Of a DNA stretch of 64,000 nucleotides, positions 44,176-59,127 are shown piece by piece. The notes under the pieces were generated by a model that made no database searches, had not been told where the DNA came from, and saw nothing but the letters and a program-made list of their open reading frames with translations. Source of the DNA: Candidatus Margulisiibacteriota bacterium (GTDB taxonomy: Bacteria > Margulisbacteria > WOR-1 > O2-12-FULL-45-9 > XYB2-FULL-48-7); NCBI GenBank assembly GCA_025453605.1, contig JALOPZ010000001.1, positions 276,986-340,985 on the forward strand. Direction: 5' to 3'. The position numbers were made by a program, and so were the translations under genes. The number at the start of each line of letters is the position of its first letter. Position 1 is the first letter of the stretch.

Positions 44176-44202
44176 GAAATTTTGCCCCGTATTTGACGAT
44201 AT
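44176..44202 (+). promoter_or_regulatory. sigma-28-type promoter motif GAAA-N15-GACGATAT
   Basis: GAAAttttgccccgtatttGACGATATattatagagaaatcATG. Nearly identical in its spacer and flanks to the copy at 50123. Confidence 0.4.
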
Positions 44203-44216
44203 ATTATAGAGAAATC

Positions 44217-46253
44217 ATGGCATTAGTCAGGCCGATCGAAAATAAGCCCCGCTGGCGGCAGTTATTCAAAACCGTCCTCGGTAATGTCATCACCTGGAAA
44301 AACCTCCTCCGCCAGCGTCCGGTAAACCACCTCGAACAAAAGATCATCAATCGGCTGGAAACGGTCGAGCACGCCCTGGTCGAGGGAAAAAGACCGACCC
44401 GGGAGCAGCTTGAGCGGCTCGAAGAAGAGCTGGTAACATACGAACAAAAACGTTCCCTGAGCCGAGCGGAAAAACAGCTGCTCGCGGAGATCAAGGCCGA
44501 GCTGACCGAACTGAAAGAGGTCCAGGCGCCCGTTGTCCCGCTGACGCCGACCGCCAACCAAGCAACCGTCGTCAACCATCCGTTCACCGGCGATCGTCCG
44601 TCGGTCGAGGTTAAACCGGCGGCCGGATTCGAAACCCGTCCTTTCCGCCTGGACAGCCTGATCCGCTTTGACCACCTGATCGGCCGGCAGATCAACCTGG
44701 AGACGCTGCTGCGCGCGCTCAATATCCGGGTTGAATTTCGGGGCAGCGATCGGATCGCCGAACTGGTCTCTCGTCTTATTCTCCGGACCATGGTCGACCG
44801 GCTGGTCCGCGAAATGGCCCGCGTCAGCGAACGCGGCGGGGAGCTGACCGAGCGGGAAATAGAATCGCTGATCCGCACGTTGAACCAGCAGTCGGCAGAG
44901 AGGCTAACGGCAGAACCGGCCAAACCGGCGCCGATCGAAAGCGAACTGACCTATGATCGGACGGAAAAGGCGATCCGCCTGGAGATCAAAGGAGCGGCCG
45001 ATCAAACGGAGGCAAAAGCGGTGCTCCGGGAACTGGCCAAGCCCGACCTGCCGTCGTTTTTGGCCGCTGCCGTTCCGCTCCTGGCCGAATTACCGGATAC
45101 CGTCGCGACGATATCCCAGGTTGTCGCCAGTCTCCCCATCAACGAGCCGGTCCTGGTCAAGTCGGTCACGCAGCTGCTGACCAAAGGCGCCGCACCAGCG
45201 GCCCGCGCGGTCGCCAGCGCCCTGGCCCAGCAATTGCCGCCGGCCGTTGCTCTCCCTCTCCTGCTGCAAACTCACGCTCAGGCGCTGACCGCCGGTAACC
45301 AGCCGGTCGCCCGCGCGGCGGAGCAAACCCTGATCGAATACGCCAGGACCACTGTCGGCCAGCAGGCGGTCGTTACCGCCTTTGTTGAGGTCAAATCCCG
45401 GCCGCTGACCACCTCGGCCATCGGCCAAAAAGCGCTCTTGGCCGCGGTGACAGCTGTCCCGACTGAAGTCCGGGCAACTGCGCCCGGCACCGCCCAGTCT
45501 ACCGTCGAGAAAGTGCTTAACCATGTGCGGGAGATCGTCAAGGCTAATCCGGCGCAACTGGCGCCGGCCGCTCTGACCGCCGAAAAAGCGATCGCGCTGA
45601 TCGAACTGGCCGTCAGGCTCGAACGGTCACCCGCCGTCATTGCCCGTCAGGAAAAAGCCGCCCCTCCCCGCCGGCGCGTCAGTTCTCTGCCGCAGCCAAA
45701 GGTCGGGATCGTCAATTCTCTGGCCCGGCGCGCCGTGAACCGGAACCCGGTCATCCAGAACCGAGTAGCTGTCGCCCAGCGCGAGCTCAAGGGGGTCATG
45801 AGGGCAGCTGAAGCGGCTAACCTGGTCCTCCCCAAGAGCGTGATCGAACACCTCTGTTCCGGCCTGGCCGGGATCAATCTCGCTCCGCTCCTGAACCAAC
45901 CGTCGGTGGGCGGGCAGTTTCAGTCACCGACAGAATCTCGTTCCGCCAGTTCGCTGCGCCACGTAGTCCGCGCTTTGGAAGCGCAGGCGGCGCGGGCGAT
46001 CAGCAGCAAGGACCCGATCGCCCTGACCCGGGTTTTTACCCTCTCCGCCCAGGTCATGCTCTACGGCATCATTATGCGGCTGGTCGGCGGCAAGCTGAGC
46101 CGGGTCGATCAGGTGATCGAACTCCTCAGACAGAAGAAGGAACTTGCCCGGATCGTCGCCAAGATCAGGCAGGGCGATATTCATGATGCCACCGAGGAGC
46201 TGTACGACGCCGTCCACGCCACGACCGCCTACTCCGAGCTGCTTGCTGCTTAA
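44217..46253 (+). CDS. hypothetical protein (678 aa), Ala/Leu/Glu/Arg-rich, helical, no signal peptide
   Basis: Long clean ORF with ATG 44217 14 nt after the promoter motif. No recognisable domain. Confidence 0.6.
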   Translation: MALVRPIENKPRWRQLFKTVLGNVITWKNLLRQRPVNHLEQKIINRLETVEHALVEGKRPTREQLERLEEELVTYEQKRSLSRAEKQLLAEIKAELTELKEVQAPVVPLTPTANQATVVNHPFTGDRPSVEVKPAAGFETRPFRLDSLIRFDHLIGRQINLETLLRALNIRVEFRGSDRIAELVSRLILRTMVDRLVREMARVSERGGELTEREIESLIRTLNQQSAERLTAEPAKPAPIESELTYDRTEKAIRLEIKGAADQTEAKAVLRELAKPDLPSFLAAAVPLLAELPDTVATISQVVASLPINEPVLVKSVTQLLTKGAAPAARAVASALAQQLPPAVALPLLLQTHAQALTAGNQPVARAAEQTLIEYARTTVGQQAVVTAFVEVKSRPLTTSAIGQKALLAAVTAVPTEVRATAPGTAQSTVEKVLNHVREIVKANPAQLAPAALTAEKAIALIELAVRLERSPAVIARQEKAAPPRRRVSSLPQPKVGIVNSLARRAVNRNPVIQNRVAVAQRELKGVMRAAEAANLVLPKSVIEHLCSGLAGINLAPLLNQPSVGGQFQSPTESRSASSLRHVVRALEAQAARAISSKDPIALTRVFTLSAQVMLYGIIMRLVGGKLSRVDQVIELLRQKKELARIVAKIRQGDIHDATEELYDAVHATTAYSELLAA

Positions 46254-59082: not shown

Positions 59083-59087
59083 TAACT

Positions 59088-59127
59088 GGGTCCGGCGGAA
59101 AACAGGCCCGCCGGGCCCTCTTATTAT
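59088..59127. terminator. bidirectional intrinsic terminator between the convergent giant gene and lnt
   Basis: GGGTCCGGCGG-aaaacag-GCCCGCCGGGCCC hairpin followed by TCTTATTATT. Confidence 0.55.

Follow-up and report, generated by a model that had tools for sequence, protein, structure and literature searches.

Between metF and lnt of a Candidatus Margulisiibacteriota bacterium, on contig JALOPZ010000001.1, lie four uninterrupted open reading frames (ORFs) for proteins of 678, 63, 912 and 2,948 amino acids, all on the plus strand at about 44.2–59.1 kb of the 64-kb stretch analysed here (the window). The 678-residue gene (44,217–46,253) begins with ATG, its mechanical ORF reaching back to a TTG at 44,193, and encodes an A/L/V/R-rich protein. 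The 63-residue gene (46,996–47,187) encodes a K/A/S/Q-rich protein and has its own promoter and Shine–Dalgarno (SD) sequence. The all-helical 912-residue protein (47,324–50,062) is encoded directly upstream of the giant 2,948-residue gene (50,236–59,082), whose mechanical ORF starts from a GTG at 50,212. MTHFR/metF (43,311–44,168) flanks the island upstream and lnt (LNT_N/CN_hydrolase; 59,124–60,512, minus strand) flanks it downstream in convergent orientation. An initial annotation, made from the letters alone, had described four long, clean frames at this place, and gene calls made independently on two public assemblies that cover it (JGI 3300037461 contig Ga0392394_0000001, 790,553 bp, and a Logan contig from SRR12684589) agree on the four. 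The portion of the source contig that we read comprised the window plus 22 kb; its LysS, up to 84% identical to that of Candidatus Saganbacteria/WOR-1 (Margulisiibacteriota) metagenome-assembled genomes, assigns the organism to that group. Because codon usage matches that of the housekeeping neighbours (G+C at third codon positions, GC3, of 0.69–0.76 in the four ORFs versus 0.70–0.84 in nine housekeeping reference genes), we regard the four ORFs as real, native genes. No paralogy was detected among the four proteins.

A recurrent gene module with a giant protein

When residues 1,250–2,449 of the giant protein were compared exhaustively with 1.84 billion representatives by HMMER, 29 relatives emerged, 13 of them at E ≤ 1e-30; most are 3,000–3,900 residues long. 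The relatives form an undescribed family (P0004–P0032) and are collinear with the 2,948-residue protein over its N-terminal, core (about 650 residues) and C-terminal regions: P0005 is 33% identical over residues 58–2,425, and P0007 aligns in all three regions. A word-indexed protein search had returned only the queries themselves for the 912- and 678-residue proteins and nothing for the 2,948-residue protein; since HMMER found the family, we treat these results as false negatives, which arise because the collection lacks the 2,948-residue sequence and because A/L-rich queries saturate the candidate list. Cluster look-ups gave singletons, and a back-translated 912-residue query had no match in GTDB genomes.

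The 912-residue protein has mutually homologous counterparts of 845, 1,125, 1,022, 1,132 and 1,152 residues in loci L203, L204, L206, L209 and L211 (26% identity over 665 residues to the 1,125-residue protein, E 1.6e-32; E 1.3e-35 between the 1,022- and 1,132-residue proteins). In the window and in these five loci, the giant gene directly follows the 912-like gene, which was not detected in L212, and L208 and L210 end at that side. The gene order recorded for the loci is 845 residues, 314 residues and giant in L203, 1,125 residues and giant in L204/L205, 1,022 residues and giant in L206/L207, 741 residues, 1,152 residues and giant in L211, 642 residues, 488 residues and giant in L212, and two giants in tandem in L208. 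L209 has the longest series, with genes for 804+, 579 and 1,132 residues and the giant, followed by convergent lnt, genes for 202 and 759 residues and a TPR gene. L209 and L211 additionally carry a 678-like gene. The 678-residue protein matches the end of the 804-residue gene of L209 (29% over 101 residues, E 1.8e-4) and a 942-residue protein of L151 (25% over 387 residues), whose gene is preceded by the same promoter as the 678-residue gene; through this protein, the 741-residue protein of L211 joins the family (E 6.6e-16).

In L209, the order 678-like gene, 912-like gene, giant and lnt is found at the same lnt-orf215-orf756-TPR site as in the window. The flanking proteins (lnt, orf215, orf756, TPR) are 54–66% identical between the two loci, whereas the module proteins share only about 22–29%. 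In five close relatives (L004, L005, L007, L008 and L049), metF abuts lnt and the module is absent, and in other genomes the module stands elsewhere, beside argF, tgt/nth or lepA. Because the L209 copy is syntenic yet diverged, because five relatives are without the module and because other genomes carry it at other sites, we regard it as old, inherited vertically with losses and relocations, and diverging far faster than its neighbours.

To judge from the homologues recovered, the 678-like, 912-like and giant proteins are fast-evolving families confined to the phylum, and the three-gene module that they form (678-like, 912-like and an approximately 3,000-residue giant) is specific to Margulisiibacteriota/Saganbacteria. 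The label "orphan" initially given to the four genes therefore does not hold for three of them, which have distant relatives in the same phylum. Only the 63-residue protein has none: no relatives were found and no counterpart exists in the related loci, so that its membership of the module is uncertain and we place it outside the conserved set. Likewise, the proposal of a co-regulated unit rather than random ORFans stands for the 678-, 912- and 2,948-residue genes, with their recurrent synteny and the same promoter and leader, but not for the 63-residue gene. The family searches gave no match to unrelated characterised families, and the gene set is kept in relatives together with the shared promoter.

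Helical proteins outside the known families

None of the four proteins had been assignable to a family by eye, and none has a significant match in Pfam, NCBIfam, PHROGs, PADLOC or the sequences of the PDB. A motif search found neither HExxH nor Walker A in them, and Kyte–Doolittle hydropathy gives no N-terminal hydrophobic segment in any of the four, in line with the annotated lack of motifs and signal peptides; the only 19-residue windows with a mean of at least 1.5 lie at residues 601–624 of the 678-residue protein. The helix-richness expected from composition is borne out by AlphaFold models of the 912-residue protein and the giant core, which are almost wholly helical. Modelled alone, the 912-residue protein reached a predicted local distance difference test (pLDDT) of 42.9, which is unusable; the structural comparison that had been suggested covered the core domain of the giant.

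The best-conserved part of the giant family is a core domain of about 650 residues (residues ~1,275–1,930; 54,058–56,025, plus strand). AlphaFold, given an alignment of 11 sequences, models it as a mostly helical domain (pLDDT 64.4, predicted template-modelling score, pTM, 0.46), and Foldseek against the PDB returned generic helical matches (SMC, BAR and stator proteins) with a best E of 0.75. Profile searches of PDB sequences with the core domain and an N-terminal motif found nothing, and Pfam domains were detected in none of 15 full-length family members. The structural, effector or host-interaction role proposed initially is speculative; none of the fold and domain searches pointed to it.

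The first 50 residues of the giant family are rich in Pro (13.1% versus 3.7%), Ser (10.0% versus 6.4%), Asn and Thr and contain little Lys, Arg or Leu, and no member has an N-terminal signal peptide or Sec/Tat signal. A polar, disordered N-terminus of this kind is compatible with flagellar type III export, although not specific to it. Towards the other end, a (PA)n linker at residues 2,418–2,439 precedes a Gly-rich helical region (residues ~2,470–2,680; 57,643–58,275, plus strand), which is moderately hydrophobic and includes a conserved DSWLRS motif; its alignment with P0007, P0014, P0016 and P0024 was made by direct reading. The family as a whole conserves two zones of moderate hydrophobicity, and the C-terminal region combines Gly-rich hydrophobic helices with a conserved ...LGL.n.dG.iNE... 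tail. We consider the Gly-rich region a candidate membrane-insertion domain.

At residues ~230–290 (window ~50,920–51,105) the giant has a conserved YLQxLLxxxGYL...GxFxxxTxxAL pattern with the appearance, by eye, of a PG_binding_1-like three-helix unit. A PG_binding_1 domain (PF01471) in the N-terminal region is not supported statistically, as Pfam found nothing in the 15 members and the PDB profile search nothing either; hhalign against a provisional sequence of the KZ144 N-terminal domain aligned in register at a probability of only 14%.

A promoter motif with sigma-28 architecture

Each of the four genes is preceded by its own copy of a 28-nt motif with the consensus [TG]GAAATTTT or GCAAGTTTT, N13 and CGATAW; the initial annotation had noticed it as a 27-nt promoter-like motif. 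The 678-residue gene has the general phylum variant, TGAAATTTT-N13(+GA)-CGATAT (44,175–44,202; TGAAATTTTGCCCCGTATTTGACGATAT), and the 63-residue gene the GCAAGTTT variant, GCGCAAGTTT-N-CCGATAT (46,950–46,978; GCGCAAGTTTATAGCCACTTCCTCCGATAT). Upstream of the 912-residue gene stands GCAAGTTTT-N13-CGATAA (47,206–47,233; GCAAGTTTTCTGACCCTGGATCCGATAA) and upstream of the 2,948-residue gene GCAAGTTTT-N13-CGATAT (50,122–50,149; GCAAGTTTTGCCCCCGTCATTTCGATAT). On both strands of the 64 kb, a loose form of the pattern occurs at exactly these four sites, one before each gene and all on the plus strand, whereas 200 dinucleotide shuffles gave a mean of 0.115 sites and a maximum of one. The genes of the 912- and 2,948-residue homologues carry the same promoter variant in the related loci. 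Apart from the 678-like genes, which have TGAAATTTT (window and L151), the module genes are marked by a distinct −35 variant, ATGCAAGTTTT.

Laid out as 8-mers, the motif reads [GC]AA[AG]TTTT, 11 nt and nnCGATAW, which is the sigma-28/FliA layout TAAAGTTT-N11-GCCGATAA. FliA-bound 28-mers of Escherichia coli include TAAAGTTTCCCCCCTCCTTGCCGATAAC at tar and TTAAGTTTTGTTAACTGTGACCGATAAA at ycgR (PMC4183435 Table 2), and the N11 spacing of the 8-mers is identical to theirs. Compared with GCCGATAA, the −10 element is CGATAT or CGATAA in every copy, both the four of the window and the related ones, with variable upstream GC; compared with TAAAGTTT, the −35 element agrees at six of eight positions for GAAATTTT and at five of eight for CAAGTTTT. 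By architecture, the motif promoters would be a variant of the known sigma-28 class, whose usual regulon content they do not match.

In the form (A)GTGAAATTTT-N13-CGATAW(ATATA), the motif stands upstream of genes in many Margulisiibacteriota loci of a LysS-anchored set. An exact-pattern scan of public metagenomes found it in at least 120 contigs, many of which share an extended consensus; the taxonomic origin of several metagenome contigs, including L100, was deduced from that shared consensus. Among the matches listed, 58 SD-bearing ORFs lie directly downstream, most of them without a Pfam domain. The domain-bearing remainder comprises HEAT repeats (three), methyltransferases (two), an RpoD-type sigma factor, SLH, subtilase and pentapeptide genes and a protein kinase, and the general-motif regulon also includes EF-hand-like genes. 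The only motility-type gene found behind the motif, a CheR-like methyltransferase in L010, falls outside the 58. A classical flagellar class-3 regulon as the full description was rejected, the sampled regulon being without flagellin or methyl-accepting chemotaxis protein (MCP).

A 236-residue sigma factor is encoded on the motif-bearing contig L100 and matches TIGR02479 FliA_WhiG best of all families (E 8.6e-39). Its gene lies directly upstream of flgB, flgC, fliE, fliF, fliG, fliH and fliI (2,466–8,331 of that contig, minus strand), and the contig's motif copy, at 659–688, precedes a 365-residue domain-less gene. Flagellar genes were found in none of the other collected loci; flagellins and the sigma-28-linked FlgV have been listed in Margulisbacteria (PMC7018530, PMC11607428). 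We infer from the match in architecture that the motif marks promoters of a FliA/WhiG-type sigma factor, whose regulon in the phylum would be large and mostly uncharacterised.

Two further gene sets carry the motif. In six genomes, AGTGAAATTTT-N13-CGATAW precedes a gene for an 89–100-residue protein (L009 ~9,175, L016 ~9,287, L017 ~3,482, L023 ~9,136, L029 ~9,242 and L042 ~2,952, all minus strand). This protein has two C-terminal transmembrane helices and is encoded next to coaX/ruvC, mostly about 0.8 kb upstream of lysS; the gene is absent from the corresponding coaX/ruvC position in the window. L108 (3,404–9,106, minus strand) has two tandem large genes, each with its own general promoter copy, for a PorV/PorQ-like plus SLH-type protein of 867 residues and a subtilase of 953 residues with a PorU-like C-terminus; the regulon therefore also takes in envelope or secretion proteins with signal peptides.

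A structured leader RNA upstream of the module genes

The 912- and 2,948-residue genes had been noted to share a duplicated leader. The duplication is real, and each copy is additionally a structured RNA of a hairpin (P1) and a terminator. Copy 1, ahead of the 912-residue gene (47,240–47,301, plus strand), has P1 at 47,246–47,266 with the loop GCCUGU at 47,254–47,259, and the terminator hairpin at 47,274–47,297 with ACAGGC at 47,286–47,291 and a U-run to 47,301, after which come the SD sequence GGGGGA and ATG. Copy 2, ahead of the 2,948-residue gene (50,156–50,221, plus strand; folding z = −3.47), has P1 at 50,162–50,189 with the loop GCCUGU at 50,174–50,179, and the terminator hairpin at 50,198–50,218 with ACAGGU at 50,208–50,213 and a U-run to 50,221. 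The 7-nt loop region UGCCUGU is identical in both while the stems differ, and both terminators end 15–22 nt ahead of the start codon with the SD sequence between.

The same leader is present in L203 (two copies), L204, L206, L208 (two), L209 (two), L211 and L212. In all there are 13 copies, each between promoter and start codon and each folding as a hairpin and a terminator with a U-run of 4–9 nt. In L204 and L206, in which translation of the giant is coupled to that of its partner, a single leader stands ahead of the pair. In an alignment of 12 related sequences, all eight base pairs of P1 are changed on both sides, a covariation score that none of 500 column shuffles reaches, and 85% of P1 cells are paired, versus 36–52% with the partner slid. 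The loop hexamer GCCUGU is invariant, and its complement ACAGGC lies in the terminator loop and 3′ shoulder of every copy. The 6-bp pairing between loop and terminator is possible in all 12 aligned copies, the variants ACGGGC (twice), AUAGGC and ACAGGU keeping the pairs by G–U wobble. This conserved complementarity fits a kissing or pseudoknot interaction between loop and terminator.

A structural descriptor applied to 2.24 Mb gave 12 hits: 11 are these leaders, each preceding a module gene, and the twelfth is probably spurious. A covariance model (R1) recovered the training copies and one new copy at 4,106–4,182 of L206 (minus strand, E 0.0016). The surrounding segment (4,094–4,235, minus strand) contains a ATGCAAGTTT promoter, a P1 hairpin, a terminator with ACAGGC, an SD sequence and ATG, and the gene behind it, of 1,714+ residues, is divergent from the module and has a faint GGDEF match; a further very long gene, outside the module, is therefore served by the leader as well. 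In 645 kb of other general-promoter contigs R1 had no hit at E < 0.3, and Rfam 15 gave no match to the leader at gathering score or at E ≤ 10. A CsrA-type leader was rejected, since on direct reading the loops are without a GGA core. We conclude that the leader is a new cis-regulatory element, most simply a transcription attenuator, dedicated to the module and adjacent very long genes.

Just downstream of the 3′ ends of the giant genes of L208 (~9,950–10,010) and L210 (~10,330–10,400) are UUAACAGGC-loop hairpins. ACAGGC therefore occurs outside leader terminators too, and the 3′-end hairpins could be additional partners of the GCCUGU loop.

Other features of the window

As initially annotated, a small GxxExxY cassette interrupts the island (46,342–46,924, plus strand). 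It is of low GC (GC3 0.56), is bounded by nested inverted repeats (46,348–46,365/46,907–46,924 at 94% and 46,408–46,430/46,852–46,874 at 87%) and contains a gene for a 130-residue GxxExxY/PDDEXK_3 protein (46,452–46,844; Pfam PDDEXK_3, E 4.7e-30). No counterpart was found in loci L203–L212. The cassette is an insertion between two module genes, outside the conserved module, and has the look of a small mobile element. Beside the module of L212 there is a comparable cassette, with NTP_transf_2 and 23S_rRNA_IVP genes.

The window contains a second giant gene, unrelated to the island (20,455–30,081, minus strand), for a protein of 3,208 residues with an M23 peptidase domain, NHL repeats, Big_13, five FlgD_ig Ig-like domains and a CHU_C/Por_Secre_tail C-terminal sorting domain. 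GC dips to 0.475–0.53 at 27–32 kb, a trough that takes in the 5′ part of the gene. No promoter copy stands upstream of it, and its downstream neighbour (19,538–20,458) is UPF0164-like. Downstream of lnt (60,491–63,405, minus strand) follow genes for a domain-less 215-residue putative lipoprotein and a 756-residue protein, with 66% and 54% identity to L209, and beside an NHL-repeat protein are domain-less ORFs of 665 (13,507–15,504) and 996 residues (16,541–19,531), both on the minus strand. The promoter motif precedes none of these four domain-less genes. A tmRNA gene lies at 8,058–8,470 (plus strand; Rfam RF00023, 154 bits), with smpB (6,955–7,440, plus strand) about 600 bp upstream.

Discussion

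The ORFs, the synteny of the module, the promoter motif with its spread through the phylum and the covariation of the leader are observed directly. From them we propose, with a probability of roughly one half, that the module encodes a co-regulated membrane-associated assembly under alternative-sigma control and leader attenuation; the parts of this model that go beyond observation are which sigma factor is involved, how attenuation works, and where the proteins are located and what they do. The 678-like, 912-like and giant genes would each be transcribed from their own sigma-28 (FliA/WhiG-type) promoter, and the sigma factor would switch them on jointly, presumably together with a motility or late-flagellar programme. 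At the leader, the polymerase would make the GCCUGU-loop hairpin first and then the terminator carrying the ACAGGC complement. Pairing between the two, made or prevented either by itself or with a factor reading the loop, would decide between a stop at about 75 nt and read-through, and read-through would allow the 2.7-kb and 8.8-kb ORFs to be transcribed. The Gly-rich helices near its C-terminus might anchor the giant at the membrane or insert it there, and the 912-like protein would act as an obligate partner of the giant.

Several observations weigh against parts of this proposal. The sigma assignment rests on the resemblance of the motif, the L100 sigma factor scores below the curated TIGR02479 cutoff (133.6 versus 189.6 bits), and L100 is unproven as a Saganbacterium. 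None of the 58 downstream genes among the matches listed encodes a flagellin, a chemoreceptor/MCP or a Che protein, and the distinct GCAAGTTTT −35 element of the module genes might reflect another sigma factor or an additional activator. In the leader, the loop–terminator pairing shows one-sided changes only, with no double-sided compensatory change in the 12 copies. The hydrophobic segments of the 2,948-residue protein are weak (19-residue hydropathy 1.3–1.5), which makes membrane insertion uncertain, and because the core model is only moderate (pLDDT 64, pTM 0.46), the missing Foldseek match is weak evidence for a new fold.

One alternative is a cytoplasmic, membrane-tethered helical scaffold or cytoskeleton-like structure that plays no part in export, its promoter belonging to a large WhiG-like stationary-phase or developmental regulon unrelated to flagella. 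WhiG in Streptomyces and sigma-28 in Chlamydia run non-flagellar programmes from the same promoter type. The A/L/K/E-rich composition and all-helical models suit such a structure, as does the regulon of the general motif, in which genes of the domain-less, HEAT-repeat, EF-hand-like, kinase and methyltransferase kinds predominate and flagellar structural genes are missing. We nevertheless hold it to be unlikely, as the sole FliA/WhiG-like sigma factor seen sits in a flagellar cluster and as the divergence of the module proteins (about 24% identity against 54–66% in their neighbours) would be unusual for a housekeeping scaffold.

If the flagellar connection is instead taken literally, the module proteins could be substrates of flagellar type III export (adhesins, effectors or translocon-like proteins), with the leader coupling transcription to secretion competence. 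Sigma-28-like promoters would time synthesis to the finished export gate, and an export gate with FliI is encoded beside the FliA-like sigma factor on motif-bearing L100. No member has a Sec/Tat signal, and the Pro/Ser/Asn/Thr-rich N-termini resemble type III export signals. Rapid evolution is frequent in exposed or secreted proteins, and the hydrophobic helices of the giant have a parallel in type III translocators. Yet a substrate of 3,000 residues would be unprecedented for the flagellar gate, the module conserves no small acidic gene of chaperone type, flagellin and hook-associated proteins are missing from the sampled regulon, and some genes with the same promoter, such as that for the 867-residue protein of L108, have ordinary signal peptides. 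Export of this kind appears rather unlikely. As a long shot, the FliA/sigma-28 regulon may have expanded to a large set of fast-evolving, signal-less proteins, the ~3,000-residue giants among them, that leave through the flagellar type III gate, the leader being a new kind of checkpoint RNA that releases transcription of the giants upon export readiness, as signalled by the export machine or by a factor which that machine secretes or titrates; such an RNA checkpoint would be an analogue of the FlgM and FliW–CsrA checkpoints.

The attenuator itself has a competitor, in which the element either terminates the upstream gene or is a small RNA of about 75 nt in its own right, made from the promoter, and the long genes start elsewhere. 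Promoter, ~75-nt hairpin and terminator are indeed the standard layout of a small RNA gene, terminator-like hairpins occur 110–140 nt downstream of preceding stop codons, and UUAACAGGC-loop hairpins also follow the 3′ ends of the giants in L208 and L210. Against this, the element always lies between promoter and start codon, 5–25 nt from the SD sequence or ATG, and keeps this position even next to a divergent or unrelated upstream gene, as in L204, in L206 on both strands and at G1 of L208. No second promoter motif stands between terminator and start codon, and the coupled pairs of L204 and L206 carry the element once, ahead of the pair. We therefore regard a non-attenuating element as distinctly improbable. 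The weakest alternative, and a very improbable one, is the recent insertion between metF and lnt of a mobile element, prophage remnant, polymorphic-toxin locus or anti-phage defence locus: the absence of the island from the same site in five close relatives, the different chromosomal places of related modules and the inverted-repeat-bounded cassette inside the island would fit, but the island is without integrase, transposase, tRNA or flanking repeats, without toxin or immunity domains and without a PHROG or PADLOC match, only the small PDDEXK_3 cassette looks mobile, and we rejected recent horizontal insertion on the host-like codon use and on the diverged copy at the identical site in distant L209, which indicates vertical descent with loss elsewhere.

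Saganbacteria and the Margulisiibacteriota at large are uncultured relatives of Cyanobacteria whose cell biology is essentially unknown. New here are a recurrent three-gene module with a giant protein family not detectably related to any known domain or solved fold, and a structured leader RNA whose clear covariation makes it an experimentally tractable handle. The phylum-wide promoter, putatively that of an alternative sigma factor, lets a regulon of "dark" genes be read from sequence. If the sigma-28 link is true, a flagellar regulon has been taken over for lineage-specific giant proteins, which would bear on the evolution of secretion, motility and cell-surface novelty in candidate phyla.

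Comparison with known systems

Taken together, the promoter, the leader and the three families appear to have no place in any known kind of system, although each has partial likenesses. The motif shares the two 8-mers separated by 11 nt and the CGATAA/T −10 core with the E. coli FliA promoters of tar, fliC and tsr (PMC4183435 Table 2). The −35 element is A-rich and then T-rich in both ([TG]GAAATTTT or GCAAGTTTT versus TAAAGTTT), whereas the GCC of GCCGATAA is not conserved in the motif, whose −10 element is followed by an extended ATATA. Like sigma-28 late genes, the module has one promoter per gene rather than long operons; unlike a sigma-28 regulon, the genes downstream of the motif are overwhelmingly domain-less and not those of flagellin, chemotaxis or motor proteins.

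For the leader, the closest comparators are attenuation or kissing-loop and pseudoknot riboswitches, such as guanidine-II/mini-ykkC and preQ1-II, and antitermination leaders, such as EAR RNA and HK022 put. Like these, it is a 5′ element of about 60–90 nt between promoter and start codon, with a covarying conserved hairpin, an intrinsic terminator, conserved complementarity between loop and terminator and a position ahead of unusually long transcription units. It differs from the known classes in having no Rfam match and in its restriction to a single gene module within a single candidate phylum, and we know of no leader class with the GCCUGU loop and its ACAGGC partner.

For the proteins, FlaC, Fed and Cia of Campylobacter and Helicobacter are sigma-28-dependent non-flagellar proteins of less than 100 kDa that are exported through the flagellum. 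Like the module proteins they are lineage-specific, have no signal peptide and stand behind a late-flagellar-type promoter; whereas their export has been demonstrated, the giants reach up to 3,900 residues and are only candidates for export. In size, the nearest parallel is the giant genes of Omnitrophota, which a preprint links to cell-wall degradation by predatory bacteria (bioRxiv 10.1101/2023.11.21.568195). As described there, these too are very long single ORFs of uncultivated bacteria known only from metagenomes; compared with that description, the module giant is without a Pfam domain or signal peptide and is distinguished by its partner gene and leader RNA.

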